From: a virus
Length of the DNA stretch: 64,000 nt
Direction: 5' to 3' (one strand)
Virus record (IMG/VR): IMGVR_UViG_3300021962_000035
Span: 1 to 64,000 of that record
Below, one piece after another: positions 1 through 56,017 of the stretch. The notes under the pieces are model-generated. The model did no database searches. It had not been told where the DNA came from and saw only the letters and a list, made by a program, of their open reading frames with translations. Position 1 is the stretch's first letter, and every line of letters begins with the position of its first letter. The position numbers and the translations under genes were made by a program.

Positions 1-552
1 CTCAGGGAGCACAAGGTAACACAGGAGCACAAGGTGCTGCAGGAACCAACGGAGCACAAGGAGCTCAAGGAGCACAGGGTAACACAGGAGCACAAGGTGC
101 TGCAGGAACCAACGGAGCTCAGGGAGCACAAGGTGCTGCAGGATCTTCAGGATCTAGCGGAGCACAGGGAGCACAGGGAGCACAGGGAGCACAGGGTAAC
201 ACAGGAGCACAGGGAGCACAAGGTGCTGCAGGAACCTCAGGATCTTCAGGATCTAGCGGAGCACAGGGAGCTCAGGGAGCTCAGGGAGCACAAGGTAACA
301 CAGGAGCACAAGGTGCTGCAGGAACCAACGGAGCACAAGGAGCTCAAGGAGCACAGGGTAACACAGGAGCACAAGGTGCTGCAGGAACCAACGGAGCTCA
401 GGGAGCTCAAGGTAACACCGGAGCACAAGGAGCTGCAGGAACCAACGGAGCACAAGGAGCTCAGGGTAACACCGGAGCACAAGGAGCTGCAGGAACCAAC
501 GGAGCACAAGGAGCTGCAGGAGCACAAGGAACAGAAGGTAATGACGGAGCAA
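1..552 (+). repeat. 9-nt-unit collagen-coding repeat, block 1, including a 127-bp exact duplication (1..127 = 280..406)
   Basis: Tandem GGAGCACAA/GGAGCACAG/GGTGCTGCA/GGAACCAAC units; the duplication offset of 279 equals 31 units. Confidence 0.9.
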
Positions 553-1685
553 ACAGCGGTAGATGGAGATTCTCAACAGCATTAACATCACCCAACAACC
601 CCGGTGCAACCCAGTTTATAAGTGATGTTACAGGCATTGCTTCTATAGGAAGACTCAGTATATCAACTACTTCCATAGCGGCCAACTACGCTGCTTGGTT
701 ATCCTCAATAATCGCTAACCGTACGGTCCTTCAGGTTATAGAGGTTGCTACAAATAGCACTTTAGGTGTATTCAACGTAACAGCCGTTACTAACAATGGT
801 AGCTACTATGATCTTACAGTAACAAACACAGTAGCTAGTGGCGCTTTAACTAATGCAAGAAATTATACGATAGCAATAGTTAATAACGGAGCACAGGGAG
901 CACAGGGAGCAGCTGGAACTAACGGAGCACAGGGAGCACAGGGAGCACAGGGAACTGCAGGAACAAATGGAGCACAAGGAGCTGCAGGAACAAATGGAGC
1001 ACAAGGAGCTGCAGGAACTAACGGAGCACAAGGTGCTGCAGGAACCAACGGAGCACAAGGTGCTGCAGGAACCAACGGAGCACAAGGAGCACAAGGAGCA
1101 CAAGGAGCTACTGGAACTGGAGCACAAGGAGCACAAGGAGCTGGCGGAACTAACGGAACCAATGGAGCACAGGGAGCACAAGGAGCAGCAGGTGGTGGTC
1201 TATCGGGGGGTAGTACACCTAAGCTTGCTTATTGGACAGGTGCTTCTTCTCTAGGTAATTCCGATGTGACGCAAAATACTTTAGCAAACGGAGGTATAAT
1301 CGTAACCACCGCTCTGGAAGTAGGTACTATAGGTACCCACGCAAACGTTACCGGTAGAATAGACGCGGCAAATGATATAGTTGCTTATTCAACTTCTGAT
1401 AAAGAACTGAAAGAAAACTTTGTAAGAATATCTAACGCTTTAAAGAAAGTTGAATCTATATCCGGTTATGAGTTTGATTGGAAACTTGAGCATAAGCACG
1501 AGCACGGTTTCGAAGGACATGACGTAGGTGTAATGGCACAGGAGATAGAAACGGTTCTTCCTGAAGTGGTTAGCACTAAATTTAATGGATACAAAGGCGT
1601 TAAATATGAAAAGATCGTTCCGCTCTTAATTGAAGCTATTAAAGAACTTTCTGCTCAAGTAGATGAACTTAGAAAAAACAAATAA
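3..1685 (+). CDS. Collagen-like (Gly-X-Y) tail fibre with C-terminal intramolecular chaperone (peptidase S74-like); 5' partial
   Basis: The frame starting at nt 3 reads [17 protein letters not shown]... with no stop, through a globular spacer and a second collagen block, into track ORF 1266..1685 (same frame). It ends in SDKELKENF...ISGYEFDWK...VGVMAQEIE...[17 protein letters not shown]. Confidence 0.9.
889..1195 (+). repeat. Collagen-coding repeat, block 2
   Basis: GAQ/GAA/GTN triplets in the same reading frame as block 1. Confidence 0.9.
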
Positions 1686-1693
1686 TAAACAAT

Positions 1694-2929
1694 ATGGCAT
1701 TACCAAATTCAGCAGCATATAGACAATCCAATTCTTTCTTAGCTGGAACTTTTATACCAAACGGTTCCACCGTAGCATACGCTCCTGCTTATGCAGGTGG
1801 TGGTGCTACTGGTGCAGTCTTTCCTAATCTTGGTGCAGGTTACGGATCAACAACATGGAGAAATGGAGTTGAAATAGGGGGAACCGCAAACGGATCTTCA
1901 AACCAGGCCATTTACTACACGATATATTCTGACACCTACACTCAAGGAACAACAACTCAGCCGAACGCTTTGCCTGTTGTTTGGGGAGTTACTACAGGAA
2001 ACTCAACAACAGATATTCTTAATCTAGTTAATAAACTTCCTGCGATGTACCCGACCACTAAGCACACAACTTATGCTCAGGCCGTTACTTGGCTTAACAC
2101 CGGAGGTTATTTCTTGGCCAACAGAAATTATCCGGCTATAATGTATAATGAGAGCACCCCAATGATCTCAGCTTTTGATCCTTCATTTTCCGCTTCTTAC
2201 CCTTTAACAGGAACTGCTATAAAGGATTTAACTGGAAACGCTACCTCCGCAGGTACTCTACAAGGATCTGCTTCTTGGGATTCAACCGATAAAAACTCTA
2301 TATTATTACCCACTAGCTCGAGTATTGCTTTACCTCAAAATATTTTTAGCAATTACGTTCTTGAAAGTAATAGCGCTAACCGTTTAACTTTTAGCGTATG
2401 GTTTTATTTAACAACACTTCCTGGTACTAATCTCATAGCAACTTTATTTAACCTTACTGATAATAGGGCAGGGACTACAAATAGACCTGGAGCTATTCCT
2501 CAATCAACAGAATGCTGGATGGCGCTTTATGTAAATAGCGCCGGAGAGATTCGTTTGGAGGGCGATCCTCAGTGTAGCGGAGCAGCGGTTACCACAGCAA
2601 GTAAACTTACAACTACCCCAGTAACAACAGGGTCTTGGCATAATATAACTTTTACCGCAGATTTCACAACAACTAACTCTAATATAAAAGTTTGTTATGA
2701 TGGTGTTATAGGCGGGACCGTTACATATATTTGGCCTGTTAGTGGTCCTGTTGCAAACACACCTAACGGAGTAGGTCTACTAGGATGCTCCGCTACGAAT
2801 TCTACTGGAATAATTCTTAATGGTACTGGTATGAATGGAAAGATAGGAGCATCTTACATTTACTATGATGAGATTAACGATACACAGAAAGCTGATCTCT
2901 ATAGCAAGACCCTTCCGATCTACCCTTAA
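1694..2929 (+). CDS. Virion-associated protein with C-terminal LamG/concanavalin A-like domain
   Basis: FDPSFSASYP-TGT-IKDLTGN, LTFSVWFYL, GSWHNITFT and NGKIGASYIY are LamG-type motifs; T/G/N-rich; directly follows the fibre gene. Confidence 0.65.
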   Translation: MALPNSAAYRQSNSFLAGTFIPNGSTVAYAPAYAGGGATGAVFPNLGAGYGSTTWRNGVEIGGTANGSSNQAIYYTIYSDTYTQGTTTQPNALPVVWGVTTGNSTTDILNLVNKLPAMYPTTKHTTYAQAVTWLNTGGYFLANRNYPAIMYNESTPMISAFDPSFSASYPLTGTAIKDLTGNATSAGTLQGSASWDSTDKNSILLPTSSSIALPQNIFSNYVLESNSANRLTFSVWFYLTTLPGTNLIATLFNLTDNRAGTTNRPGAIPQSTECWMALYVNSAGEIRLEGDPQCSGAAVTTASKLTTTPVTTGSWHNITFTADFTTTNSNIKVCYDGVIGGTVTYIWPVSGPVANTPNGVGLLGCSATNSTGIILNGTGMNGKIGASYIYYDEINDTQKADLYSKTLPIYP

Positions 2930-2996: not shown

Positions 2997-3575
2997 ATGC
3001 AGGTACAGTGTTTAATAGTTGACGACTTTTACAGCAACGTTGACGAGGTTAGAAATTTTGCTTTGCAGCAAGATTTTAGCGTGAATGGAAACTATCCAGG
3101 ACACAGAACGGATTCATTCATTACTGATAGTGCTAAGGATCTAATACAGGATATTATTAGACCTTTTGCAGGAAATGTTATCTGGTGGGGAGATGACTAT
3201 ACAGGGGCTTTCCAATACACAACAGCATCAGATAGATCATGGATCCACTCAGATTACACCACCAACTGGGCAGGAGTTTTATATTTAACTCCGGATGCAC
3301 CCATATCTGCAGGAACCGGACTTTTCAAATTGAAAGAAAACGGTTTAAGAAGCTGGAAGAATTCAGATCACACAGACGAGGAAAATAGAAACGCTCTTCA
3401 TAATAAATATTCTCAGGACTACACAAAATGGGAGATGGTTGATAAGATCGGAAACGTTTATAATAGATTAGTTCTTTACAGAGGGGATTTATTCCATGTC
3501 TCTCTAGATTACTTTGGCGATAGCAAAGAAAATGGAAGACTATTTCAATTATTCTTTTTTAATACAGAGAGATAA
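2997..3575 (+). CDS. 2OG-Fe(II) oxygenase-like protein (DUF6445-like)
   Basis: IVDDFYSNVDEVR...NYPGHRT start; HxD motif (WIHSD), WAGVLYL, YNRLVLY, distal His (LFHVS), RLFQLFFF. Confidence 0.75.
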   Translation: MQVQCLIVDDFYSNVDEVRNFALQQDFSVNGNYPGHRTDSFITDSAKDLIQDIIRPFAGNVIWWGDDYTGAFQYTTASDRSWIHSDYTTNWAGVLYLTPDAPISAGTGLFKLKENGLRSWKNSDHTDEENRNALHNKYSQDYTKWEMVDKIGNVYNRLVLYRGDLFHVSLDYFGDSKENGRLFQLFFFNTER

Positions 3576-4837
3576 TGATAACAAAAAAACCTAGCGCTAT
3601 TGTTTACGGGTGGCCTATTAAAGGATCCGTTACACTCCAGTCGGATATCTATTTTGAAGAAAGACTTTATGACGAAGTCACAGTATACTCCCTAGATTAC
3701 ACCGGAAATGTCATAGATGATTATACTAAACACAAGCCTGATCTAATCATATCCATAATAGAGGATATCAACGTTCCCGATGAGAGATTAAGGGAAATAA
3801 GTTTTGTTTACAATTTTCAGGTCCCGGGTAATGTTTTAGCTAATGATATTGTAGCACAATCCACATTCAGAAACTGCTCTTTGTCCAGACCTAAATTTTC
3901 TATATTCACACCAACATATGATACCAACCCACTTAGATTGAAAAGACTTTATGAAAGTTTAAAGGCTCAAACTATGGGAAATTGGGAATGGGTTGTTTTG
4001 GACGATACTCCAGGAAAAACTACGTGGGAGCTTATAAACGAAATAGCAGAGAAAGATTATAGGGTTAAACCTCACAAAATGTTACCGACTAGCGGAGGAA
4101 ACATTGGGCTAGTTAAACGTAGAGCAGCTATGCTCTGTGAAGGTGATTGGTTATTCGAATTAGATCACGACGACGCACTTATAAGTAATTGTTTAGAAAT
4201 GTGTTCATCTGCAGCTAGCGTTTATAAGGATGCTGGGTTCATATACACAGATTGCTGCGAACTCTACGAAGACGGTGAATTTAAAAGCTATGATTATGAC
4301 AGATCAGGTAACTGGTACGGCAGAGAGGATAACTACTACTGTTGGGGATATGCTGGACACACGATGGTTGTAGCAGACGGGAAAGAATATTTAGCTCATC
4401 ACACTGCAGATATAAATCCAAGGACGATTAGATTTAATATAGGAATGCCAAACCATGCTAGAATGTGGAGAAGGGATGTCTATCATAGAATAGGCGGACA
4501 CAATCCAAAATTCCCTGTAGCGGACGATTTTGAGCTCATTATAAGGACTTTTCTTAATACCCGTATGGTACATGTTAAAGAGATGCTATATCTCCAATAC
4601 AGCGATAGAAACACCACTACAAGCAATAATTCAATTGACATAAATAGGAGAGCTAGATTAATAAGGGATTACTACAATCCGAAAATACATCAAAGAATAT
4701 TGGACCTTGGTGGGGTTGATTGGGATTGGGATCCAGAAACAGCTACTAGTCCTAGACTACAACACGAAGGGGGAGAAAAATTAAAATTCGGAATTGAGGA
4801 ATCGTATCTAAATTACATATATGCTAAGGAGAAGTAA
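3575..4837 (+). CDS. Glycosyltransferase family 2
   Basis: IFTPTY, WEWVVLDD, ELDHDD (DxD) and VADDFELIIR motifs. Confidence 0.85.
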   Translation: MITKKPSAIVYGWPIKGSVTLQSDIYFEERLYDEVTVYSLDYTGNVIDDYTKHKPDLIISIIEDINVPDERLREISFVYNFQVPGNVLANDIVAQSTFRNCSLSRPKFSIFTPTYDTNPLRLKRLYESLKAQTMGNWEWVVLDDTPGKTTWELINEIAEKDYRVKPHKMLPTSGGNIGLVKRRAAMLCEGDWLFELDHDDALISNCLEMCSSAASVYKDAGFIYTDCCELYEDGEFKSYDYDRSGNWYGREDNYYCWGYAGHTMVVADGKEYLAHHTADINPRTIRFNIGMPNHARMWRRDVYHRIGGHNPKFPVADDFELIIRTFLNTRMVHVKEMLYLQYSDRNTTTSNNSIDINRRARLIRDYYNPKIHQRILDLGGVDWDWDPETATSPRLQHEGGEKLKFGIEESYLNYIYAKEK

Positions 4838-6023
4838 AATATGTTTAAATGCTATGGTAGCAAACGAATCCAGAACTATTCTAAGAATGCTGGAATCTTG
4901 CTATCAATATGTGGATTATTGGGTTATCCAGGACAATGGATCTACTGACGGAACACAGGATCTAATCAGAAACTTTTTTGCGGAGAAACAAATACCTGGG
5001 TTTCTTTACGAAACTAAATGGGAATATCCGGGATGGAATAGGGATCATACTTTGCAAACGTGTTTAAAATCAGATCATGGATGTGATTGGATTTTAAGGA
5101 TGGATGCAGATGAACAACTTGTTGTTGATGCTGATTTTGACTGGAACATTTTAAATGATCATTCAATTCAGAGCTTTAATATAACAGCTGATGGCGGGGG
5201 CAGTGTTTACTTCAGAACTTGGTTATGGAATGCAAGACTTCCGTGGTTATTCAAGCATGATAAAAGACACGAGGTAATTCTTTTGCCTGAGTCTGGATCT
5301 AATGACGAAGGATTTCAAAGAGTAAATCTACCTAGATCATTTAGACATATTATAACTAATGATGGACAAACTTGGGCTTCACCAACTAAGTTTTTAAAGG
5401 ATGCTCTGGAGCTAGAATCCGATCAAGTAACAAGCGGTAAAGTATTAGAAGACACATATCATCTTTGGTATATCGGAAAAAGCTATTCTGATTGCTATGA
5501 AGATTCGGATAACTTTCCATTTAAAAGAGCTCACTCAATAGAGTATGCAAGAAGGGCAATATTTTATTTTGAACAGTATCTAAATGTTATGCATGACTGG
5601 GAAAATAAGAAAACTGGGCATTTCCAAAATGAAATGTCCTACCTTGGTATGTGCTTAATAGCTAACGCGTACAGATTTATGGAAGATAAAGAAACTGCAC
5701 TTTTTTATCTTGCGAACGCCGAGCAATTCTGTCCCGAAAGAAATGAACATCTAATGTGGATGACTGAAATTTTTCTATCTATCGGAGACTATGATTCCAT
5801 GCTTGGATGCACCAGAAGATTGACAGATCCTGCTAGAAAAAATCCATTTCCTAATAGATGTTTTCTTTTAACCAATTCTGCTTACCCTGATACCGGAACA
5901 TATGTTCACGATCTTCATAAAATTGCAAATCACAAAAACGAGATAGTAGATGTGATTCCTACGGAAGACATCCAACCAAATAAAGTATTAACATCAGCCC
6001 AAGGGCCTTCATTCTTAAAATAA
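4821..6023 (+). CDS. GT2-like glycosyltransferase with TPR-like helical C-terminus
   Basis: ICLNAMVANE, WVIQDNGSTDGT, WILRMDADE (DxD), HE; helical YL...A repeats ending CPERNEHL. Confidence 0.8.
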   Translation: MLRRSKICLNAMVANESRTILRMLESCYQYVDYWVIQDNGSTDGTQDLIRNFFAEKQIPGFLYETKWEYPGWNRDHTLQTCLKSDHGCDWILRMDADEQLVVDADFDWNILNDHSIQSFNITADGGGSVYFRTWLWNARLPWLFKHDKRHEVILLPESGSNDEGFQRVNLPRSFRHIITNDGQTWASPTKFLKDALELESDQVTSGKVLEDTYHLWYIGKSYSDCYEDSDNFPFKRAHSIEYARRAIFYFEQYLNVMHDWENKKTGHFQNEMSYLGMCLIANAYRFMEDKETALFYLANAEQFCPERNEHLMWMTEIFLSIGDYDSMLGCTRRLTDPARKNPFPNRCFLLTNSAYPDTGTYVHDLHKIANHKNEIVDVIPTEDIQPNKVLTSAQGPSFLK

Positions 6024-6036
6024 AAATAAAATAAAT

Positions 6037-6312
6037 ATGTCAGAACAAATTAAATTACCAGAAGAACTCTTAATGGAAATTCAAAAATTAAGAGATGAGC
6101 TAACACAGAATGTGATTAGAATCGGAAGACTTAATGTAGAAGCTGCTTTCCACAGAAAAGATTTAGAATTGGTTGAGCAAGAGCTTAAAGCTCTTTATGA
6201 CTATGCCGAGGATATTTCTATTAGAGAGTCAGAACTTCAACAAAAAGTTATTTCCGAATACGGAAACGGAAAACTTGATTTCGAATCGGGTATGTTTACT
6301 AAAGAAGCTTAA
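6037..6312 (+). CDS. Hypothetical coiled-coil protein
   Basis: Clean ORF with an A-rich leader; ends YGNGKLDFESGMF. Confidence 0.7.
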   Translation: MSEQIKLPEELLMEIQKLRDELTQNVIRIGRLNVEAAFHRKDLELVEQELKALYDYAEDISIRESELQQKVISEYGNGKLDFESGMFTKEA

Positions 6313-6321
6313 TCTATCTTA

Positions 6322-7278
6322 GTGGACAGAAAAAGGATATTATACGTCTCTCCACATTTTTCGACCGGAGGACTTCCACAATACTTGCTTAAAAAAATAG
6401 AATCTTTTAATGATTCTAGCGATATCTATTGTGTAGAATACTCGTATTATGGAGATGCTTATGTGGTCCAAAGAAATAAAGTTATCTCTATTTTAGGTGA
6501 TCGATTTATATCTTTGGGAGACGATAAGTCCAAGTTAATTGATATAATTTCTATCATTTCTCCAGACATTATACATTTTGAGGAGATAGTAGAAACTTTT
6601 ATTGATAATAATATTCTAAAATCAATTTACAGTAAGGAAAGAAATTATTTTATTTGCGAGACTTGTCACAGTTCACAAATAGATCCTTCTGTTAAAATTT
6701 ATAAACCTGATAAGTTTGTTATGGTTTCTAAATGGATTAGAGATAAGTTTAGTATACTAGGAATACCTAGCGAACTTCTCGAATATCCTATAGAGAATAA
6801 GAAACCTGATAGGAGTTTAGCTTTATCTGATCTTGGCTTAGATCCAAATAAGAAGCACATCGTAAATGTTGGGTTATTTACGCCAGGAAAAAATCAGGGT
6901 GAACTGATTAGATATGCTAAAGCTTTGGAGAAGTTTCCCATAGAATTTCATTTTATAGGAAATCAAGCTCCTAATTTTTCTGGTTACTGGGAACCTTTAA
7001 TGAGGGATCTACCCATAAATTGTAGAATTTGGGGTGAAAGAAACGATGTTGATACATTTTATCAAGCTGCGGATCTTTTCGTTTTTACTTCCGTTTTTGA
7101 ACTTAATCCTCTTTGTATAAAGGAATCACTCTCCTGGAAAACACCGGTTATTTTTAGAAATCTTGATACCTATAGTAATTCATATAACGATAATAATTTA
7201 TCACATTATCTGACTGAGGATTTAGAAAAAAATGTGTATAAGATACTAGAGATTCTTGGGTTTATTAAACAAATGTAA
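6322..7278 (+). CDS. Glycosyltransferase family 4 (GT-B)
   Basis: PHFSTGGLPQY, NVGLFTPGKNQ, and FYQAADLFVFTSVFELNPLCIKES (E-x7-E). Confidence 0.85.
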   Translation: MDRKRILYVSPHFSTGGLPQYLLKKIESFNDSSDIYCVEYSYYGDAYVVQRNKVISILGDRFISLGDDKSKLIDIISIISPDIIHFEEIVETFIDNNILKSIYSKERNYFICETCHSSQIDPSVKIYKPDKFVMVSKWIRDKFSILGIPSELLEYPIENKKPDRSLALSDLGLDPNKKHIVNVGLFTPGKNQGELIRYAKALEKFPIEFHFIGNQAPNFSGYWEPLMRDLPINCRIWGERNDVDTFYQAADLFVFTSVFELNPLCIKESLSWKTPVIFRNLDTYSNSYNDNNLSHYLTEDLEKNVYKILEILGFIKQM

Positions 7279-7283
7279 AGTCG

Positions 7284-8465
7284 ATGCAGATACACAAAGA
7301 GTCAATATTGGTCTATAACGATCTGAAAAAAGCAGATTATCCTATATTTAAACATAAGGTAAGCATCAAAATATGGTTTGATTTTTCGCCAAAGGTTTTA
7401 ATTTCTTTTGGCGACTATAATCTGGAACCGTATACTATTAAAATGTTTGACGGAAACGGTAACCTTTTCCACATTAGTGAAATAGAAACTGGATTCTTTA
7501 CTTACGCATATAGAAGATGGATAACTGACACAACTATATTTGTTTATGATAGTAACGGATTAGAGGTATCAAGGTTTAATCTTATTGAGAAAATAAAATC
7601 AGGTAAAGTTATAGTAGCACTTGAAAGTAGTTCTTTAGGAGATACTATTGCTTGGATTCCTTATGTTAATAAATTTGCTGAGGATCATAATTGTTCTGAT
7701 ATTACAGTCACCACATTTTGGAATCACCTTTTCGAGGGTGAATATGATAGACTACAATTTAAGCATCCGGGATATCGTACCGAAGAGATTGACGTTATTA
7801 TAGGAGTTGGGTGGTATATTGAGGAGGACGTAAATTATCACAAAGTAGATCCCAGAATTTGTCCATTACAGAAAGTTGCCGCTGATATACTGGGGGTAGA
7901 GTATGTCGGTGAAATAAAGCCTAGGATAAAAAAAACAATTAAAGAAAGACCTACTGATAAAAAATATATCTGCATTGGGACTGAATCTACTGCTGCTGCT
8001 AAACATTGGAATCATCCCAACGGATGGCAGGGATTAGTTGATAGTTTTAAAGAAATAGGATACGAGGTTATACTTATTCACACACAGGGAAATTTCTTAT
8101 CTGGTGTTATTGACAAAACTGGAGATTTACCTATAGAGGATAGAATAAGTGATATACTCAATTCTGAATTTTTTATTGGGATAAGCTCTGGACTTTCCTG
8201 GTTGTCATGGGGACTAAATATACCTGTAGTTTTGATATCTGGGTTTACGCATAAATTTTGTGAGTTCTCTGACAAAACTCTTAGAATAATTAATGAGGAT
8301 AGGTGTCACGGGTGTTTTAATAAAATTGATTACAAATTTGATAGGGGAGACTGGATGTGGTGTCCCGTGCATAAAGATACTGATAGGCATTTTGAGTGCA
8401 CTAAATCCATAACACCCGATCAAGTATTTTCTCTAATTAAGAATTGGGAATTCTTTAAAGGATAG
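7284..8465 (+). CDS. Autotransporter heptosyltransferase-like (AAH/TibC, BAHT family) GT9-fold protein
   Basis: SSSLGDTIAWIPY, TTFWN, STAAAKHWN, FFIGISSGLSWLSW, and a four-Cys motif CHGC...WCP...FECTK like the TibC iron finger. Confidence 0.85.
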   Translation: MQIHKESILVYNDLKKADYPIFKHKVSIKIWFDFSPKVLISFGDYNLEPYTIKMFDGNGNLFHISEIETGFFTYAYRRWITDTTIFVYDSNGLEVSRFNLIEKIKSGKVIVALESSSLGDTIAWIPYVNKFAEDHNCSDITVTTFWNHLFEGEYDRLQFKHPGYRTEEIDVIIGVGWYIEEDVNYHKVDPRICPLQKVAADILGVEYVGEIKPRIKKTIKERPTDKKYICIGTESTAAAKHWNHPNGWQGLVDSFKEIGYEVILIHTQGNFLSGVIDKTGDLPIEDRISDILNSEFFIGISSGLSWLSWGLNIPVVLISGFTHKFCEFSDKTLRIINEDRCHGCFNKIDYKFDRGDWMWCPVHKDTDRHFECTKSITPDQVFSLIKNWEFFKG

Positions 8466-17119: not shown

Positions 17120-17674
17120 ATGGCAGGATTATCACATTATCAAAATTCATTATCAGCAATAAACAAGTTCGAACCTGTTTACCTGAATCAGTTCGAGGTT
17201 ACCGTTATACCTCCTTCTGCTGTTGCTGGCGGAGAGATCCTACTACAACACGTTACGAAGGTTGGTGGACTTACATTAGACAAAAACCCAGGATTGGTTA
17301 CCCAAAAATATAAGTTTGCTAAAAGGAACTATGCTGGAGCTAAGCCCGATAACACTTATATGGATTTAAGTTTAAGCTTTACCGTCAACTTAAATGATGA
17401 TAACTCAATGTATGTTTTTAAAACATTGAGACAATGGAGTGACTTAATCTACAATCCTTTAACAGGTGCGATGGGACTTAAGAATGATTATACTGGTACT
17501 ATCGTGGTTTCGATTTTTAATAAACAAGGGGACGTTTTCAGAAGAATAACATGCAGAGATTGTTATCCAACTAAAGCCATAAATGAAATGAATCTTAACT
17601 ACACATCAACTGATATATTCAAGATTGATGATATGACATGGGCAGTTGATTACTGGGAGGATTTATTCTTATAA
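17120..17674 (+). CDS. gp19: Tail tube protein, paralog 1 (gp19-like)
   Basis: Follows the sheath; YLNQFEV, F-VNLN, LRQWSDLIYNPLTG, DCYPT, DYWE. Confidence 0.85.
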   Translation: MAGLSHYQNSLSAINKFEPVYLNQFEVTVIPPSAVAGGEILLQHVTKVGGLTLDKNPGLVTQKYKFAKRNYAGAKPDNTYMDLSLSFTVNLNDDNSMYVFKTLRQWSDLIYNPLTGAMGLKNDYTGTIVVSIFNKQGDVFRRITCRDCYPTKAINEMNLNYTSTDIFKIDDMTWAVDYWEDLFL

Positions 17675-17691
17675 AAAAACACAAAAAATAA

Positions 17692-18267
17692 ATGGCAGGT
17701 TTACCACATTTTACAAACTCTAAAGCCGCGATAAACAACTACGAACCGGTTTATCTTAACCAATTCGAGGTTTTGATCAACCCACCTTCGGGTATAGTAG
17801 ATGCTAGCACGACTTTCAAAGGAGAGTCTATTTTAACTCAACAGGTTAAGTCCATTGCTGGATTAACTGTAGACATCTTAGCAAACGGAAACGTTGAACA
17901 AATGTACAAATTTGCTCAAAGAAGATACGCTGCAGGCGAGCCTACAACAACCGATATGACTTTAACTATGGAATTTGAAGTCAACCTAAATGATGCTAAC
18001 TCTATGAGTGTTTATAAGATACTTAGACAATGGAGCGATTTAATCTATAACCCCTTAACTGGAGCAATGGGTATTAAGAGTGATTATGTTGGGTCTATGG
18101 TTATTTCGGTTTTCAGCAAAAGAGGGGATGTTTTCAGAAGAATCAGAATTCCTTCTTGCTTTTTGAGCACAGCTATTAACGATATGCAGTTGGATTACGA
18201 GAATCCTGCTATCTACACAGTATCAGCTTCTTGGATCTGTGATTACTGGGAAGATTTATTCATCTAA
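17692..18267 (+). CDS. gp19: Tail tube protein, paralog 2 (gp19-like)
   Basis: Same motif set as paralog 1 (EPVYLNQFEV, LRQWSDLIYNPLTGAMG, DYWEDLF). Confidence 0.85.
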   Translation: MAGLPHFTNSKAAINNYEPVYLNQFEVLINPPSGIVDASTTFKGESILTQQVKSIAGLTVDILANGNVEQMYKFAQRRYAAGEPTTTDMTLTMEFEVNLNDANSMSVYKILRQWSDLIYNPLTGAMGIKSDYVGSMVISVFSKRGDVFRRIRIPSCFLSTAINDMQLDYENPAIYTVSASWICDYWEDLFI

Positions 18268-21412: not shown

Positions 21413-22018
21413 ATGGAGTTATCTACCCTATTGAATTATTCGGGCCGAGAAATTGTTTCCTCTGATTTTGATTTTTTAAATCCTGATTTTTTAAACATCA
21501 ATAACTGGAGCGTCAAAAAAACTGGAAGCTCGTTTGACATATCGTGGGATCACTCCGATATCATGAAGGAAAGTCCTTTGTATTGGGAAAATTCAAAGGC
21601 AATGAAAAACGACTTTATCTACTTACAGATGGCTAAAACCTGGGGAAAAAACTCGCATTGTAAAAGAATGCAGGTTGGATGCCTAATGGTAAAAGGCAAA
21701 TCGATAATCTCCGACGGTTATAATGGTTCTCCAACGGGATTTCCCAATATCTGCGAGGATGAAAATATGGTGACACTTCCGTATGTTCTCCATGCTGAAG
21801 CAAATGCGATAACCAAACTAGCAAAAAGTACACAGAGCTCAGATGGCTCTACTTTATACGTTACATTATCCCCGTGTTTTGAATGCTCAAAACTGATCAT
21901 ACAATCCGGGATAAAAAGAGTAGTTTTTTCGGGTGTTTACAGAAAACCTGAATCCCTTCCTTTTCTGATAGAGGCTGGGATTGAATTATACAGAATTAAC
22001 CAATTTGACCAAATTTAA
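21413..22018 (+). CDS. dCMP deaminase
   Basis: SHCKRMQVGC, GYNGSP, HAEANAI and LSPCFECSK zinc motifs. Confidence 0.95.
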   Translation: MELSTLLNYSGREIVSSDFDFLNPDFLNINNWSVKKTGSSFDISWDHSDIMKESPLYWENSKAMKNDFIYLQMAKTWGKNSHCKRMQVGCLMVKGKSIISDGYNGSPTGFPNICEDENMVTLPYVLHAEANAITKLAKSTQSSDGSTLYVTLSPCFECSKLIIQSGIKRVVFSGVYRKPESLPFLIEAGIELYRINQFDQI

Positions 22019-31042: not shown

Positions 31043-32656
31043 ATGGCCGGTTTTGTAGACAATAATGATCCATCTCAATCCCCTGTTATACAGAGGATCA
31101 GGGAATCAGTGAGGAAACTGAGTACTTTTGGTATGAAGTATGATGACATGGTCATCAGAAATTCACAAGCTGTTGGTGTTACTGAGGCTGCTTTTTTAAA
31201 TAAGAACAAAGCTAATGTAGAGGACGAAAGCATGCTTTGGACCTTAGCAAAGCAGGATATCACAACAAAGCAGTTCATTTCATATTTCGATAAAGACTAT
31301 AAGGGCAAAAGGGATTATCTAAGAAAATTCTCGCTTAATCCCGAGATAGAATGGGTTCTAGATACGATATGTGACGAAGCCATTTCTTACGATCCCGCTA
31401 ATTTCTTTGCATACCCGGATTTCATAGATCTTTCAGACATAAATGAAAAGCTAAAAGAGGATCTTTATGAGAATTATAAAAAGCTTTATGACATCTGGGG
31501 ATTTACCGACGACATTACTGGATGGCAGTACTTTAGACAATTTTTAGTTGACGGATTTTTATGCTTTGAGATAATCTACGATAACGAGGGTAAATATATC
31601 ATAGGATTTAAAGAATTGGATCCTGTTACTATAATACCGAGTGTAGAGAAACAGGTAGACGGAACTTTTGTTAATACCTGGACCCAATTCCCACAAGACC
31701 CGAAAAGGAGAAGAATACTTTACGATCCGCAGATAATCTATATTTCTTATGCTAAAGGAAATGCAATCTCTAGGGTAAGTTATATCGAGAGGCTAATTAG
31801 ACCGTATAACATTCTGAGAATTATAGAATACACTAGAGTTATCTGGTCTGTTATGAATTCATCTTTTAGATTAAAGATGACAGTTCCTATCGGTACTAAA
31901 TCACCTCAAAAGGGTATGCAAACCTTGGGTGAACTTATGAGTATCTATAAGGAGGATGTCCAGCTTAATGATGAGAGCGGGGAATTACTAATTGACGGTA
32001 AACCTAAGATCCAGTTTTATAAAAACTATCTTATGCCCTCTGGTGTTAATGGTACGCCTACCATAGAACCTGTTACCACTGAGGGACCTAATCTAAATGA
32101 TCCTGCACCTTTGTCTTACTTCTTTGATAAGTTCGTGCAAGAATCTAAAGTTCCGCCTTCAAGGTTTCACACTCCAGACGGTGGAAACACTTCTCCATAT
32201 TCAAACGGAGCGGAAGGATTAGATAAGGAAGAAATAAGATTTGCTAAGTTTGTAGAAAGACTTAGATCAATTTTCCAGGAGATATTAACAAAGCCACTTT
32301 GGATTCAAATGGCTAAAAAATATCCTAACCTGGAGAAGGACTTCTTATTTAAGAGCCAATTGGGACTAGATTATTTCTCTGATAATCCATTTAAGATCAA
32401 TCAGGAGATGGATATTATTAATAAAAGGAAAGAATCCGTTACTGCTATGACAGGATTACTCGGAGACGAAGAGAAGCCATATTTCTCTACCGCTTTCCTT
32501 ATTGAGACTTTCCTTGGTATGTCCAGACAGGATATAATAGCAAATAAGGAAGCCATGGAGAGAAAAGCTAAGGAGAAGGAAAAAGCAGAGAAGAAAGAAG
32601 GCGGGGAAGAAGGCGGGGAAGAAAAAGAAGGGGAAGCACCAGAAGTAACACTATAA
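31043..32656 (+). CDS. gp20: Portal protein, paralog A (T4 gp20-like)
   Basis: YFRQFLVDGFLCFEII, SYIERLIRPYNILRIIE, KVPPSRF, EEIRFAKFVERLRSIF. Confidence 0.93.
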   Translation: MAGFVDNNDPSQSPVIQRIRESVRKLSTFGMKYDDMVIRNSQAVGVTEAAFLNKNKANVEDESMLWTLAKQDITTKQFISYFDKDYKGKRDYLRKFSLNPEIEWVLDTICDEAISYDPANFFAYPDFIDLSDINEKLKEDLYENYKKLYDIWGFTDDITGWQYFRQFLVDGFLCFEIIYDNEGKYIIGFKELDPVTIIPSVEKQVDGTFVNTWTQFPQDPKRRRILYDPQIIYISYAKGNAISRVSYIERLIRPYNILRIIEYTRVIWSVMNSSFRLKMTVPIGTKSPQKGMQTLGELMSIYKEDVQLNDESGELLIDGKPKIQFYKNYLMPSGVNGTPTIEPVTTEGPNLNDPAPLSYFFDKFVQESKVPPSRFHTPDGGNTSPYSNGAEGLDKEEIRFAKFVERLRSIFQEILTKPLWIQMAKKYPNLEKDFLFKSQLGLDYFSDNPFKINQEMDIINKRKESVTAMTGLLGDEEKPYFSTAFLIETFLGMSRQDIIANKEAMERKAKEKEKAEKKEGGEEGGEEKEGEAPEVTL

Positions 32657-32665
32657 AAATAAGAG

Positions 32666-34291
32666 ATGGCAGGATTTTTAGATTTTTTAAGACCTAACGA
32701 GTCAGCTTTAGGTAACATACTGAGAAGCCTTGGTAAAGTATCCAAGTTCGGTATGCAGTATGATGACATGGTCGTTAGAAATTCTCAGGCCGTAGGTAAA
32801 ACAGAAAGTTATTTCTTTAATCAGCAAGGAACTGGATTTACCCAGGATGACGCTTTTTACTGGACAGCTTCTTACCAGGATACCAAGGTAAGAAAATACA
32901 TCGCATACTTCGATAAGGACTATGTAGAAAAAAGAAACTTCTTAAGAAAATTTTCACTAAATGGAGAAATTGAATTTATTATTGATACGATTACAGACGA
33001 ATCTATCACTTATGACGATAGAAATTATTTTGCTAATCCTTCTTTCCTTAATTTAGATCTAAAGGAGAAGGTATTAAATAAGATATCTCTACATTATAAT
33101 AGGCTGTACAATATATTTGGGTTCCAAAATTCCGTACTTGCTTGGCAGTATTTCAAACAATTTTTAATTGACGGATTTCTCGCATTTGAGATTATCTATG
33201 ACAACAAAGGAAAAGAGATAATCGGATTTAAAGAGCTTGATCCATCTTCTCTACAACCCGCTGTTGAAAAGATAGGGGAAAATGAATACCAACAATTTTG
33301 GATTCAGTATCCAAAAAATCCTCAAATGACTAGGAAACTAACAAATGAGCAAATCATTTATATTTCTTATGCTAAGGGTAATAGCGTATCTAGGGTTAGC
33401 TATATAGAAAGACTCGTTAGATCCTACAACATTCTAAGAATCATGGAGAATTCCAGAATCATCTGGAATGTTATGAATGCTTCTTATAGATTGAAGTTTA
33501 TTATTCCTACTGGTAGCCAATCTCCTCAAAAAGCTATGCAGACTTTAGGCCAGCTAATGTCTAACTACAAGGAGGATATTACCATTAATGACGCTTCAGG
33601 TGAATTAACGGTAAATGGAAGACCTAAGGTTCAGTTTTATAAAAACTATCTATTTCCTGAACAGAATGGTCAATCACCTCAGATAGAATCATTAAATCCT
33701 AATGGTCCGGATTTTAATGTTATGGATAATGTTCTTTATTTCTATAACAAGTTAAAAATGGATTCCAAAATACCTTATGCTAGATTTGCTTCAAGGGCTG
33801 CTGGTCCTGTTAATTATCAGATAGGTATAGATCAGTTGGAAAGAGACGAGATAAGGTTTGAGAAATTCCTAAGAAGATTAAGATCTATTTTCCAGGAGAT
33901 ACTTGTCAAGCCCCTTTATATTCAAATGTGCTTAGATTTTCCTGAGTTGTCAAGAGATAGAAGCTTTAAAGCAAATCTGGGATTGGATTTTCACAGAGAA
34001 AGTGAGTTTGAAGAAATGGTTCAACTTACCAACTTTACTAAGAGAAGCGAATTCATAAAAGGCTTAGGCGAGCTTAAAGTTAAGGTCGGAGAGGAAGAGA
34101 AAGCATACTTTGATAATGATTATCTTATACAAAGATTCCTTGGGTTAACTCCGGATCAAATAGCTACAAACGAAAGCTATTTGAAAAAAGAAGCAAAAGC
34201 TGCTCCTAAGAAAGAGGAAGGCGGAGCTGAAGGCGAGGCCGCTCCAGCGGAGGGCGAGGGCGAAGGAGAAGCTCCGGAGGTAACTCTATAA
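32666..34291 (+). CDS. gp20: Portal protein, paralog B (T4 gp20-like)
   Basis: YFKQFLIDGFLAFEII, SYIERLVRSYNILRIME, KIPYARF, DEIRFEKFLRRLRSIF. Confidence 0.93.
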   Translation: MAGFLDFLRPNESALGNILRSLGKVSKFGMQYDDMVVRNSQAVGKTESYFFNQQGTGFTQDDAFYWTASYQDTKVRKYIAYFDKDYVEKRNFLRKFSLNGEIEFIIDTITDESITYDDRNYFANPSFLNLDLKEKVLNKISLHYNRLYNIFGFQNSVLAWQYFKQFLIDGFLAFEIIYDNKGKEIIGFKELDPSSLQPAVEKIGENEYQQFWIQYPKNPQMTRKLTNEQIIYISYAKGNSVSRVSYIERLVRSYNILRIMENSRIIWNVMNASYRLKFIIPTGSQSPQKAMQTLGQLMSNYKEDITINDASGELTVNGRPKVQFYKNYLFPEQNGQSPQIESLNPNGPDFNVMDNVLYFYNKLKMDSKIPYARFASRAAGPVNYQIGIDQLERDEIRFEKFLRRLRSIFQEILVKPLYIQMCLDFPELSRDRSFKANLGLDFHRESEFEEMVQLTNFTKRSEFIKGLGELKVKVGEEEKAYFDNDYLIQRFLGLTPDQIATNESYLKKEAKAAPKKEEGGAEGEAAPAEGEGEGEAPEVTL

Positions 34292-40016: not shown

Positions 40017-40919
40017 ATGATATCAGGACAAACTCCACCAAAAATATCTTATATAGGACCTCACACAGAATCTGGTGATTTGAGGTCTCAGATAAATTCA
40101 TACGAGGAGATGCTTTATGTCATTTTAAATAACATAAAGCTTAATATAGAAATCGACATAAAGATCACATGCATTGATGTATGTGATTTTTCATATTCGC
40201 CAAATTTCTTTAGAGAGGTTATAGAGGAGGAATCTGAAAAGATCTCTTCCATTATAGATGAGATAAATTCATTCATTGCTAAAAACGATGTAAAGATACT
40301 CTTTTCTGTTAATAGAGAATATTTTCTAGGCACCCAATTGGAAAACGTAAAGAGCTCAACACTAGCTCTCTTTTCTAGATTGTCTGAGATTCTTGACCTC
40401 ATAGGTGTAAACTATCCTTCTATAATGGTCAGGGTTGGCTCAGCATACGGGAATAGAAGAAATACTATGGATCTATTTTGTGAAAGACTTTCAGATCTGG
40501 ATCAGTGTGTTATAGACAAACTTTGTGTTATGAATGACGACAAGCCTAGCTTATTTTCTGTTACCGATCTTCTGTCCGGGATATACTACAAGGCAGGGAT
40601 ACCAATTTGCTTTAGACTTCTACCCCACCAATTTAACGACGGAGGATTGAGCATAAGAGAAGCTTTGTTTCTTTCCTGTTCTACCTGGAAGGCAGGACGG
40701 AAACCCTTCTTCATTCATTCAGAATCTTTAGAATGTGATGAAATTGGATACCCGCTCACTTCAAAGACTTCGGAATACCTTAAAAGTAGAATACCAACTT
40801 TCGGATTGGATATAGACGTGATAATAGATTCACCAGCAAGAGAGGATTCGTGTCTAAAATATAGAATGGATTATAGAGGACTTCCTCCTATAGTAATAAA
40901 CAAAAACCCTAAGAAATAA
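40017..40919 (+). CDS. UV-damage endonuclease (UvsE/UVDE)-like protein with degenerate active site
   Basis: VGSAYGNR, MNDDKPSLFSVTDL, IPICF, STW...P.FIHSES follow the UVDE motif order, but metal ligands are replaced. Confidence 0.7.
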   Translation: MISGQTPPKISYIGPHTESGDLRSQINSYEEMLYVILNNIKLNIEIDIKITCIDVCDFSYSPNFFREVIEEESEKISSIIDEINSFIAKNDVKILFSVNREYFLGTQLENVKSSTLALFSRLSEILDLIGVNYPSIMVRVGSAYGNRRNTMDLFCERLSDLDQCVIDKLCVMNDDKPSLFSVTDLLSGIYYKAGIPICFRLLPHQFNDGGLSIREALFLSCSTWKAGRKPFFIHSESLECDEIGYPLTSKTSEYLKSRIPTFGLDIDVIIDSPAREDSCLKYRMDYRGLPPIVINKNPKK

Positions 40920-54048: not shown

Positions 54049-54609
54049 ATGGTATACGTATTCGAAGGCCCCAGAAATTCAGGCAAGACATTTTTATCCG
54101 GGTTCGTCTCGGACTCCTTTAATATACCGAGATTCCAGTTTAAATTTGCAAACTTTTTTAAAGATCTAAATTTAAAAAGTGTGGATAGCAAGGAAGCACA
54201 TGCATTCTCTCTAGGAAAAGAGTTTATGCTTATGCAGCTGGCTAAGGATCTTGAACATGAGTCTTTTATTCACGACAGAGGAATATTGACAGTTTTGGTT
54301 TGGGGATTACTTGAGGGTAGAATCACGGAAGATGAAGCTAGAGATCAGATAGAAATATTGAAGAAGTATTCTTTGTTGGATCAAATAACAATAATCTACA
54401 TTCAGGGCAATAACCCAGATAAGTCTGATAGAGATAAGGATCAATGGGATCATATCGATGGTGATCCTAGAGAAAGAGAAACCTACGTAAAGGTGATATC
54501 AATGTTCCAAGAAGCTGGTCTCGATAGAATATGGGTATTTATAAACGGATTTGATGATCAATCAGTGAGCAACATGGGTTCAATGTTTGAAGATATACTT
54601 TTTAATTAA
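54049..54609 (+). CDS. P-loop deoxynucleotide-monophosphate kinase-like protein
   Basis: VFEGPRNSGKT and FIHDRG; likely start at ATG 54049. Confidence 0.75.
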   Translation: MVYVFEGPRNSGKTFLSGFVSDSFNIPRFQFKFANFFKDLNLKSVDSKEAHAFSLGKEFMLMQLAKDLEHESFIHDRGILTVLVWGLLEGRITEDEARDQIEILKKYSLLDQITIIYIQGNNPDKSDRDKDQWDHIDGDPRERETYVKVISMFQEAGLDRIWVFINGFDDQSVSNMGSMFEDILFN

Positions 54610-54613
54610 AAAT

Positions 54614-56017
54614 ATGTGCGGAATATTATTAACAACTAGGGCAGAAAAAAATCCCAACATTTTAGACACGATAAAGCATAGAGGTATAGAGAGATCTATT
54701 GGAGAACTTGATAACGTTACCCTTTGTCATCATAGGCTACCTATTCAAACTTTAGATGGTGATGACTGGAATCAGCCAAGAGAGATATCTCCTGGAGTTT
54801 ATTTAATGTTCAATGGCGAGATTTTTAACTATGATCAGAACCTATATACTTCTGACACCGAATACTTGTGTAGCTTATTCTCCGGGTACAAAGGAGGTAA
54901 TTTAGAATTCTTTGCTGCCACATATACACCGCACATTCAAACTTGGGATGGATTTTGGGCTATAGTTATCTATGACTCCAATAACGGTAACGTTATCGCA
55001 TTTACCGATCCTTTGGGTAAGAAATGTCTGTATAAAAACGATCTAGGCGAAATCTGCTCTGAAATTAAAGGCCTTTACGGTCCTTTGGACGAGGTTGACG
55101 AAGCTTATATAAGCTCCGTTAGAAAATGGGGTTACAATAAAGATAATAGAACTCCGGTGAAAACAATCAAAAGGATTCTACCTAACATTTTATACTCCTA
55201 CAATATAGCATCCCCACTATTTGATAAGACCTTTGGTCCTTATTATAGAACATGGGAATCTCCTATTCCCGAACTGATTGATGCTGATTATGAAACCCAC
55301 ATGGAGTGGCTTTGGGACAAGATGTTTGAAAGCGTAGGAAACAGACTGGTTTCCAAGAACTATCCAATATCTTTATTAATCTCAGGGGGCTTAGATTCTT
55401 CCATAATTGCTGGTGTTTTGAACGAGATGAAAGCTAAGGTTACTTGGTTCAGCATAGAGAATGGTGAAACCCCCTTTGTAAACGATTTAAGCGCCCATTT
55501 AAGCACTCCTGTTAATTTTCTAGAGTATGATATGGATTCTAGTAAAAATGCGCTTATATACAAGCTATGGAACGAAACACCGGTGGATTTAGGATCTGTT
55601 ATACCCCAATATCACCTTTTTGAAGCGGTAAAGAAAAATAGCGGTTATAGAATAGTCCTAAGTGGTGACGGATCGGATGAACTTTTCGGAGGATACTCAA
55701 GAATACACGACTATGATTCACAGCAATCTGATGTTTTCGAGGAGCTCACCTATTACCATCTTCCAAGACTCGATAAGATGTCTATGGCTCACACCCTAGA
55801 GCTAAGAAGTCCCTTCCTAAATTTAGATATAGTAAGATTTGCATTGCACCTCCCTATAGAGTGGAGAACAGATAAAAAGATCTTAAAAGATACCTTTGGA
55901 CCGATGCTTCCTGATTCTATAGTGAATCGTAAAAAAGAAGCCCTCAAAAATCCAGAAATAAAAGAGGATAAGCTTAAATACCGACAAAAAGCGGTAGACC
56001 TTTTTTTAGAGCCCTAG
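54614..56017 (+). CDS. Asparagine synthetase-like glutamine amidotransferase (AsnB family)
   Basis: N-terminal MCGI (Ntn Cys), HRG, HHRLPI, FNGEIFNY, SGGLDSS, LSGDGSDELFGGY, RLDKMSMAHTLELRSPFL. Confidence 0.92.
   Translation: MCGILLTTRAEKNPNILDTIKHRGIERSIGELDNVTLCHHRLPIQTLDGDDWNQPREISPGVYLMFNGEIFNYDQNLYTSDTEYLCSLFSGYKGGNLEFFAATYTPHIQTWDGFWAIVIYDSNNGNVIAFTDPLGKKCLYKNDLGEICSEIKGLYGPLDEVDEAYISSVRKWGYNKDNRTPVKTIKRILPNILYSYNIASPLFDKTFGPYYRTWESPIPELIDADYETHMEWLWDKMFESVGNRLVSKNYPISLLISGGLDSSIIAGVLNEMKAKVTWFSIENGETPFVNDLSAHLSTPVNFLEYDMDSSKNALIYKLWNETPVDLGSVIPQYHLFEAVKKNSGYRIVLSGDGSDELFGGYSRIHDYDSQQSDVFEELTYYHLPRLDKMSMAHTLELRSPFLNLDIVRFALHLPIEWRTDKKILKDTFGPMLPDSIVNRKKEALKNPEIKEDKLKYRQKAVDLFLEP

Follow-up and report, generated by a model that had tools for sequence, protein, structure and literature searches.

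Heptosyltransferases of the BAHT family include TibC and Aah of Escherichia coli, which are paired with the autotransporters TibA and AIDA-I (PDB 4RAP/4RB4). BAHTs act in the cytoplasm on Ser residues of proteins, e.g. Ser313 and Ser322 of TibA (PMC4358343). In this study, a TibC-like enzyme encoded by a virus was analyzed together with its neighbors. The DNA examined (the window) comprises the first 64 kb of IMG/VR record IMGVR_UViG_3300021962_000035, which has 121,823 bases and a CheckV completeness of 44%. The genes of interest form a cassette at positions 2997–8465 that encodes a putative 2-oxoglutarate (2OG) oxygenase (DUF6445), two family-2 glycosyltransferases (GT2a and GT2b), a small protein (s91), a family-4 glycosyltransferase (GT4) and the TibC-like enzyme. 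Judged from its genes, the cassette probably serves the cytoplasmic glycosylation of the phage's own collagen-like fibers, a reading that was favored because comparison across phages supported it best. A preliminary description of this DNA had proposed that the phage O-glycosylates its fibers or its capsid; the fiber part of that proposal was borne out to this degree, and no support for the capsid as a target emerged from this analysis.

The phage enzyme resembles TibC and Aah in its curated family, full-length fold, catalytic Asp, sugar pocket and four Cys. As in those systems, the enzyme gene lies beside a gene for a long, rod-like, repetitive, Ser-rich surface protein, with a collagen-like repeat rod as the parallel to the β-helix rod of autotransporters; by analogy, the repeat rod may be hyperglycosylated in the cytoplasm. 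Unlike TibC and Aah, the enzyme is phage-encoded, has a collagen-like fiber as its neighbor and a GT4 as its partner, and belongs to a lineage in which the oligomerization thumb is deleted.

Both the role of BAHTs as autotransporter partners and the glycosylation of virions are already known, the latter from mycobacteriophages. There, glycosyltransferase genes of the phage, sometimes accompanied by methyltransferase genes, are found among or close to the structural genes, and their products modify virion proteins of the same phage (PMC12619734). Those enzymes are of other families (no BAHT is named in the citing passage), their targets are the C-termini of capsid and tail-tube proteins, and the system has been demonstrated by experiment (PMC12619734), whereas the present cassette is known from genes alone. 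Collagen-like surface filaments rich in Thr and Ser are O-glycosylated by a dedicated transferase in the cases of BclA (Bacillus) and of BclA3 with SgtA (C. difficile) (PMC8968730, PMC7157674), and the glycan of BclA is thought to help hydration and stability (PMC8968730). These systems differ in having mostly GPT-type repeats with proline, other transferase families and a spore-surface location (PMC8968730, PMC7157674). Mimivirus hydroxylates and glycosylates its collagen (PMC8968730), and the use of a 2OG oxygenase with glycosyltransferases on G-X-Y repeats in animals and mimivirus is taken here as a model for the DUF6445-GT2a-GT2b trio. The acceptors in those systems are Lys and Pro (PMC8968730), neither of which occurs in the 94 triplets of the window fiber, and the sequence of DUF6445 does not place it among the lysyl or prolyl hydroxylases. 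Finally, GmaR of Listeria, which transfers O-linked N-acetylglucosamine to flagellin (PDB 22ao), has a GT2 domain followed by TPR-like repeats, the same order as is suggested for GT2b; the GT2b matches are weak and partial, and neither a flagellin nor a sign of GmaR's regulatory role was seen. Among the papers listed in literature searches, none joined BAHT-type enzymes to phages or to collagen-like fibers. For the moraphages, a possibly related lineage, four groups of core glycosyltransferases have been reported in a paper that contains neither of the terms "heptosyl" and "collagen" (PMC12619734).

The TibC-like enzyme

The match of the window enzyme to NCBIfam TIGR04414 (hepto_Aah_TibC; cut-off 200 bits) covered residues 28–386 on model positions 10–372 of 374, while Pfam GT9 scored 18.2 bits, under its cut-off of 22. 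TibC itself (PDB 4rap) was matched by phmmer with E 9.7e-56, residues 37–386 aligning with TibC 33–384. The AlphaFold2 model had a predicted local distance difference test (pLDDT) value of 87.7 and, in Foldseek, superposed on 4rap with a template-modeling (TM) score of 0.84 over 374–384 columns. It comprises an N-terminal β-barrel (strands at 27–99), a GT-B catalytic domain and a four-Cys iron finger. By sequence, the protein is a member of the BAHT family.

In TibC, a ferric ion is held by Cys339, 342, 358 and 370, the catalytic base is Asp110, and the sugar is bound by Thr226, Lys230, Arg286 and Trp305 (PMC4358343). All four Cys, putative iron ligands here, are kept in the window enzyme (C341, C344, C360 and C372), the motif being intact as the preliminary description had stated, and the other residues correspond as D110 to D120, T226 to T236, K230 to K240, R286 to R287 and W305 to W306; Asp120 is the predicted catalytic base. 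The D, K and W and the four Cys were kept in every phage row of the alignment (58 of 58), and the four Cys in the bacterial rows too (5 of 5). Pro300 of TibC (Ser294 in Aah) sets the choice of heptose epimer, and Aah, with Ser at that position, takes both ADP-D,D- and ADP-L,D-heptose (PMC4358343). The window enzyme has Ser there, as in Aah and unlike TibC.

Two BAHT features are missing from the window enzyme, namely the thumb and an autotransporter neighbor. The TibC dodecamer is formed through a β-hairpin thumb (Phe265/Val266) that joins dimers and is needed for TibC activity (PMC4358343). The thumb is absent across the window lineage, variable in other phage clades and present in four of the five bacterial enzymes; where it would lie, the model of the window enzyme has coil (265–275). 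The neighboring genes encode GT4, s91, the collagen-like fiber and the neck protein, with no autotransporter among them. The bacterial enzymes at L091–L093, on the other hand, do adjoin AIDA/autotransporter genes. In an alignment-based maximum-likelihood tree (quick search, arbitrary root), a long branch with a Shimodaira–Hasegawa-like approximate likelihood-ratio value (SH-aLRT) of 100 split the 58 phage rows from the bacterial enzymes, which were five autotransporter-linked sequences.

The conserved sugar-pocket residues suggest that the sugar added by the TibC-like enzyme may be a heptose. GmhA-like phosphoheptose isomerase genes were found in 4 of 23 TibC-bearing records, at 184–202 bits against TIGR00441 (cut-off 209) and up to 239 bits against NF001628 (cut-off 265), and one further record of the 23 has adjacent, split HldE-like kinase and adenylyltransferase genes (loci of the GmhA-like and HldE-like relatives: L096, L098, L099 and L101). 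These genes, components of an ADP-heptose pathway, fit the use of heptose in part of the clade and prove nothing for this phage. Two candidate heptose activators were considered and set aside. A 675-residue protein encoded at 116054–118081 of the contig (L012:6054–8081) looks like a nicotinamide mononucleotide (NMN) adenylyltransferase; its C-terminus matched PF01467 (1.7e-6) and TIGR00125 (1.7e-7), and its long N-terminal part has no family. The "cytidylyltransferase-like" protein of Microcystis phage Mel-JY01, the one cultured phage that carries a TibC domain, is also NMN-adenylyltransferase-like and is unrelated to the 675-residue protein.

Two modules and the repeats of collagen-like fibers

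TibC-like relatives are encoded in at least 577 stretches of IMG/VR (577 of 600 pattern matches) and by 768 metagenome proteins at E≤1e-10. A tblastn search of cultured or deposited phages gave just four records: Mel-JY01 and three uncultured huge-phage records. For comparison of gene neighborhoods, 84 TibC loci were analyzed and reduced to 57 that were non-redundant at 90% identity of the TibC domain. Collagen-like ORFs (open reading frames with at least 16 G-X-Y triplets) were sought in flanks of up to 10 kb. They were present at 34 of the 57 loci, within 5 kb at 28 and directly adjacent to TibC at 4. When whole records were searched, PF01391 was matched in 25 of 26 TibC-bearing records (24 over the cut-off). 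Distances come from nine TibC-bearing records, each with a completeness of 84% or more and with all its collagen matches listed. In these, the strong collagen ORF closest to TibC lay 0.5 kb away in G013, 1.2 kb in G019, 5 kb in G002, 7.5 kb in G015, 8.6 kb in both G017 and G020, and 11 kb in G005, i.e. within 11 kb in 7 of 9 records. With 1–3 collagen loci per 230–350 kb, such proximity is expected in about one-fifth of genomes or fewer, and the chance of 7 in 9 is ca. 3e-4 by rough arithmetic with shared ancestry uncorrected. In a control set anchored on Peptidase_S74 instead (37 loci in 11 clusters), TibC was confined to the two clusters of the window's own lineage, and the eight clusters with collagen-free fibers were all without TibC and GT4. 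The GSS/GTS fiber of L107 had no TibC in its examined flank.

The fibers near TibC have an unusual composition for collagen. In 41 collagen-like ORFs (6033 triplets), GSS (2156) and GTS (2107) made up 71% of the triplets; Ser or Thr occupied 82% of the X positions, Ser occupied 76% of the Y positions, Pro accounted for less than 1%, and charged residues were rare. In bacterial collagen-like proteins, by comparison, Pro fills 19% of the X positions and Thr fills 31.6% of the Y positions (PMC8968730). Since BAHTs modify Ser, GSS/GTS repeats would offer a BAHT-type acceptor in nearly every triplet along a rod-shaped substrate. TibC and repeats of this type are also paired in cultured Mel-JY01. 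Its TibC domain is fused with GT4 and FkbM in a protein of 1226 residues that is annotated merely as "methyltransferase FkbM". Upstream by 1.7 kb, and just before a "structural protein" gene, there is an open frame of 1016 residues (L002, 2–3052, + strand) having 199 G-X-Y triplets, 134 of them GTS or GSS. This frame is unannotated in the record, where two hypothetical coding sequences on the – strand are listed across the stretch.

Proximity to the fiber genes could also arise if other virion proteins (capsid, sheath, neck or LamG-like) were the ones glycosylated and the cassette and fibers shared a variable late-gene island. The cassette does belong to the late structural block and immediately precedes the genes for neck, large terminase (TerL) and sheath. 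In one lineage (L051, L058, L065 and L069), TibC is one small gene before the sheath gene, and G004 carries s91-GT4-TibC without a collagen match over the cut-off. In mycobacteriophages, moreover, subunits of the capsid and the tail tube reportedly bear glycans (Freeman et al. 2023, cited in PMC12619734). This explanation was considered unlikely, however: collagen-like ORFs are the sole type of neighbor common to lineages with differing gene orders, the G-S/T-S fibers present Ser at nearly each triplet, and TibC of G013 abuts the only collagen ORF of a 272-kb genome.

Glycosylation of the fibers themselves, the preferred reading, would involve more than one set of enzymes. In the window lineage, the gene order is collagen fiber(s), variable genes, s91, GT4, TibC, neck, o261, TerL, sheath, tube and tube. 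The full cassette was found in the closest relative (87%), and s91-GT4-TibC alone in relatives at 63%. Thus, s91-GT4-TibC is the core conserved in the lineage, and DUF6445-GT2a-GT2b is a separable, optional trio. The cassette had been described at first as a single unit, and this view has to be replaced by one of two separable modules that go with two collagen repeat chemistries.

Within the core module, BLAST comparison of the 57 loci placed a GT4 resembling that of the window in one protein with the TibC domain at 14 loci and next to TibC at 23; at 7 loci it was two to eight ORFs away, and at 13 none was detected. Among 22 scanned long TibC-containing proteins (of 28 listed), a GT4 domain occurred in 16, and four had an FkbM methyltransferase as well; GT2, GT25, GT32-like and polysaccharide pyruvyl transferase domains were single cases. 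The frequent fusion or adjacency suggests that GT4 and TibC form one functional unit, often extended into a glycan-building multi-enzyme. A profile of the GT4 matched WaaG in the PDB at 0.0076 and nothing else there. Its similarity to SdgA (1.2e-6; 27 bits, cut-off 800) was too weak to support the naming of a subfamily. The third member, s91, had been missed in the preliminary description, whose other five cassette genes (2OG oxygenase, GT2, GT2 with TPR-like repeats, GT4 and TibC-like) were recovered in the ORF and family scans. It accompanies GT4 and TibC always in the lineage (19 non-redundant loci) and has a conserved C-terminal YGxGxLDFxTG motif; library scans found no family, with phrog_36295 at 0.0065 only. 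Its possible roles are those of an accessory factor or a fiber chaperone. Phage T4 has a small helical fiber chaperone, gp57A.

The trio is associated with a different repeat. The 94 triplets of the window fiber include 46 GAQ, 15 GAA, 14 GTN, 7 GNT and 4 GSS, with no Pro or Lys, and a globular insert is located at about residues 185–295. A second collagen-like ORF, at 120783–121823 of the contig (L012:10783–11823) and cut by the contig end, has GSS or GTS in 60 of 96 triplets. Within the lineage, Gln-rich fibers occurred only in trio-bearing loci, and trio-less loci had Ser/Thr-type fibers only. A GT2b-anchored search (185 relatives, 80 loci) also recovered the trio in phages without TibC or GT4, and such trios lay near GAQ/GAT/GPT-type collagen fibers in L184, L196, L204, L215 and L218. 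From 164 loci, 59 clusters of collagen ORFs were classified, those with at least 20% Gln triplets being called Gln-type. Where the trio was present, 11 clusters were Gln-type and 6 were not; where it was absent, the corresponding numbers were 2 (neither of them GAQ) and 40. The Fisher odds ratio was 36.7 (p 2.7e-6, uncorrected, with loci sampled by anchor gene). At TibC-less trio loci with collagen, the collagen was Gln-type in 7 of 7 clusters. The window fiber is presumed to be the substrate of the trio, and its 30 Ser/Thr triplets are possibly acted on by GT4 and TibC as well.

DUF6445 had 3703 relatives at E≤1e-5, and the best 120 of these were 65–100% identical. H84-x-D86...H167, the predicted iron triad, and R181, the predicted 2OG-binding basic residue, were invariant in 25 aligned sequences. 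The model was of moderate quality (pLDDT 72.8), and every top Foldseek match was a 2OG oxygenase (E of 5.2e-4 or weaker; TM 0.41–0.53): the proline hydroxylase 7dt0, KanJ, HygX, OGFOD1 and P4H, a mixture of amino-acid or protein hydroxylases with sugar-modifying enzymes. In the model, then, the protein has the 2OG-Fe(II) oxygenase fold, a double-stranded β-helix, and iron triad. Hydroxylation of Lys or Pro by this enzyme was dropped from consideration, as the adjacent fiber has neither residue in its triplets. GT2a can be called a viral GT2 and nothing more specific, its N- and C-terminal parts having no family match. For GT2b, single-sequence searches matched SunS (0.0011) and GmaR (6.2e-4). 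A six-sequence profile matched GmaR at 1.8e-5 over positions 12–104, a weak and partial match, and consensus TPR proteins weakly (5.8e-4 to 2.3e-3) over 278–366, with 5.8e-4 at 278–337; Pfam reported no TPR at E≤0.01, and no close relative was found among cultured phages. The flagellin-transferase analogy drawn at the outset depends on these weak matches.

The cassette, or at least the trio, might instead remodel the host surface (lipopolysaccharide, capsule or surface proteins) during infection. Such a role, which has been proposed for islands of glycosyltransferase genes in cyanophages, would suit the distribution of DUF6445 in cultured phages. There, cyanomyoviruses and marine single-cell viruses were its only carriers (34 records), and glycosyltransferase genes were often its neighbors; in a cyanophage paper, genes of this kind were interpreted as serving cell-wall modification (PMC12801897). 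The best named matches of GT2a, TuaG and WcaA, are polysaccharide enzymes, all far under their cut-offs, and 10 of 13 TibC-less trio clusters had no collagen ORF in view. Yet the cassette has no flippase, no polymerase and no membrane-span-like segment in any of its proteins (maximum KD19 1.39), BAHT enzymes act on proteins, Gln-type collagen ORFs accompany the trio, and the cassette sits in the late virion block. Remodeling of the host surface was therefore regarded as quite improbable.

Layout of the cassette and its setting in the phage

The cassette consists of six tightly packed ORFs on the + strand (Table 1). From 5' to 3', the junctions are one shared base at 3575, a 17-nt overlap and gaps of 13, 9 and 5 nt; spacings are thus overlaps or gaps of no more than 13 nt. 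No terminator-like site was found on the + strand inside the cassette. Scans for sigma-70 promoters and terminators gave counts not above those of shuffled sequences, and the T4 late-promoter motif TATAAATA occurred 5 times, under the shuffle mean of 8.95. The region had been called one operon. The tight same-strand spacing agrees with that term and the promoter and terminator signals lend it nothing, so "operon" is used here in the sense of spacing and strand.

Table 1. Features of the window, with the family or structural matches that identify them.
Feature	Position	Strand	Evidence and remarks
Collagen-like fiber with Peptidase_S74 C-terminus	3..1685	+	Collagen 6.4e-40; Peptidase_S74 9.9e-14; 5' end cut by contig start
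Ser/Thr/Asn/Gly-rich protein with LamG-like C-terminal domain	1694..2929	+	Atlas Laminin_G_3 clusters 0.97-0.98; model TM 0.82, residues 144-411
DUF6445, 192 aa	2997..3575	+	Pfam 9.1e-14; phrog_1644 1.2e-32
GT2a, 420 aa	3575..4837	+	GT2 7.4e-11, catalytic domain residues 105-227
GT2b, 400 aa	4821..6023	+	GT2 9.8e-7 (residues 8-104), then TPR-like helical C-terminal half
s91, 91 aa, predicted coiled coil	6037..6312	+	No family assigned
GT4 / Glycos_transf_1 (GT-B), 318 aa, GTG start	6322..7278	+	Pfam 7.2e-10
TibC/Aah-family (BAHT-like) glycosyltransferase, 393 aa	7284..8465	+	TIGR04414 266.1 bits
Neck-type protein, 829 aa	8525..11014	+	PF11649 25.3 bits (cut-off 25); phrog_679 9.2e-9
Tail-tube paralogue	17120..17674		phrog_32623
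Tail-tube paralogue	17692..18267		phrog_32623
dCMP deaminase	21413..22018
Portal paralogue	31043..32656		phrog_213 4e-58
Portal paralogue	32666..34291		phrog_213 2.9e-64
UvdE-type UV endonuclease	40017..40919		3.5e-9
Asparagine-synthase-like protein with glutamine amidotransferase domain	54587..56017		PF00733 6.4e-40

The flanks proved to be as first described, with the collagen/S74 fiber and the LamG-like gene upstream and the neck-type gene downstream. Scans of the Pfam, PHROG and NCBIfam type found no family for the protein encoded at 1694–2929, and its LamG assignment comes from Atlas features and the model. It is probably a receptor-binding or fiber-tip protein; its gene evolves quickly, with 66% identity in the closest relative, whose neighboring genes reach 88–100%. 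The neck-type protein, in which residues 260–411 are the T4 gp13/gp14-like region, marks the downstream border of the cassette and the start of a conserved block (neck-o261-TerL-sheath-tube-tube). The fibers may be tail fibers, collar whiskers or head fibers. The whisker gene wac of T4 lies before the neck gene 13, a position similar to that seen here.

Judged by its encoded proteins, the phage is T4-like, large and uncultured: T4-type neck, large terminase, sheath, two tube paralogues, two portal paralogues, prohead protease and major capsid protein were all identified. The terminase was nearest to those of uncultured huge phages (38%), Sphingomonas phage PAU (34%) and Tenacibaculum phage PTm1 (34%), and megablast found no near DNA match to the window in cultured phages. 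Both the portal and the tail-tube paralogues are encoded by adjacent genes, and the tube pair is kept in all relatives of the lineage. In the relative L014, the large-terminase gene is in two pieces (166 and 643 residues) around an ORF of 379 residues, which may reflect an intron, an intein or a homing-endonuclease insertion. The UvdE-type endonuclease and the asparagine-synthase-like protein of Table 1 are encoded farther along the window.

In a T4-like phage, some of the transferases (GT2a, GT2b and perhaps GT4) might glycosylate hydroxymethylated DNA bases, as in T4. The window does encode a deoxycytidine monophosphate (dCMP) deaminase, and the relatives G001, G002 and G015 carry, in addition to a normal ThyA, a second, divergent ThyA-like ORF. 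The latter has 261 residues (403 in the normal ThyA of G002, loci L141 and L142) and matched phrog_160 at 8.4e-24 while remaining under the Pfam cut-off; it could be a pyrimidine hydroxymethylase, in which case the DNA of the lineage may be modified. This phage itself has no ThyA-family gene in 122 kb. Further, many phages have GT4 in fusion with TibC, a domain that acts on proteins, and the trio tracks fiber type rather than nucleotide-metabolism genes and comes and goes among close relatives with an otherwise shared block. DNA was accordingly held to be a very unlikely substrate.

Proposed modification of the fibers

Several observations weigh against fiber glycosylation by this cassette. 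With respect to the enzyme, the equivalent of Arg286 is Arg in only 30 of the 58 phage rows, so sugar donors may differ within the phage clade. A nine-residue gap removes the thumb tip (TibC 264–272) from the window enzyme, and with Phe265/Val266 deleted, a TibC-type dodecamer is doubtful in this lineage. BAHTs are reported to modify Ser, not Thr (PMC4358343), and the 122 kb of this phage's contig have no heptose-pathway gene. With respect to the fibers, the one beside the cassette is mostly GAQ/GAA, with Ser or Thr in 30 of 94 triplets and GSS/GTS in 5. The Ser-rich collagen ORF lies 120 kb from the cassette on a contig broken at both ends; both breaks fall inside collagen repeats, and assembly therefore probably failed there. 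As to linkage, 23 of the 57 TibC loci have no collagen ORF in view, though many of these loci are cut short and in at least one of them, L021, part of a collagen sequence is just beyond the locus edge. The nearest strong collagen ORF of G010 is about 38 kb or more from TibC, and the complete, TibC-bearing genome of G004 has no collagen match over the cut-off. Of the 13 TibC-less trio clusters, only 3 show a collagen ORF in the sequence at hand, and one of the others has none within flanks of 9 kb on each side. The enrichment figures come from loci sampled by anchor gene, with shared ancestry uncorrected, and the S74-anchored control is consistent yet marginal (about p 0.055 by our own arithmetic).

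The following scheme for fiber glycosylation is conditional as to substrate, sugar, order of steps and benefit. Newly made collagen-like chains would be glycosylated in the cytoplasm late in infection. The first module (s91, GT4 and the TibC-like enzyme) would place sugars onto Ser, perhaps also Thr, of Gly-Ser/Thr-Ser triplets, the TibC-like enzyme using Asp120 as the base and an ADP-heptose-type donor for transfer to Ser hydroxyls. GT4 would start or extend the glycan, as the methyl-, pyruvyl- and further glycosyltransferases fused to these enzymes elsewhere would also do. Put forward less firmly, the second module (DUF6445, GT2a and GT2b-TPR) would modify the neighboring Gln-rich GAQ-type fiber, possibly through hydroxylation of the side chain by DUF6445 followed by glycosylation by GT2a and GT2b. 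The resulting dense coat of sugars would supply the hydration and stiffness that proline, hydroxyproline or charge pairs give to other collagens, and it may also shield the fiber or tune adsorption. In worm cuticle collagen, galactosylated Thr has a stabilizing effect.

A bolder and rather doubtful extension is that aquatic phages possess a matched code of enzymes and repeats for proline-free collagen, in which sugars stabilize the helix in place of hydroxyproline. BAHT-like enzymes with GT4 would hyperglycosylate Ser in (Gly-Ser/Thr-Ser)n, and a mobile trio of one 2OG oxygenase and two GT2 enzymes would hydroxylate and then glycosylate (Gly-Ala-Gln)n. If this were true, the trio would modify collagen in a novel way, at a residue that is neither Pro nor Lys. 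Glycosylation of the fibers as such is directly testable, since cultured Mel-JY01 carries its TibC fusion beside a GTS/GSS collagen frame.

This work newly separates the cassette into a core and a trio, ties the trio to Gln-type collagen, and reports the absence of the thumb from this lineage, the conserved s91 and the unannotated collagen frame of Mel-JY01. The BAHT family reaches beyond autotransporter partners: its members are common in uncultured phages and are tied there to proline-free collagen-like fibers saturated with Ser and Thr. If these fibers are glycosylated, virion glycosylation would exist in a second and widespread form, enzymes for dense glycosylation of proteins would become available from these phages, and there would be a natural answer to the question of how a triple helix remains folded without proline or charge pairs.

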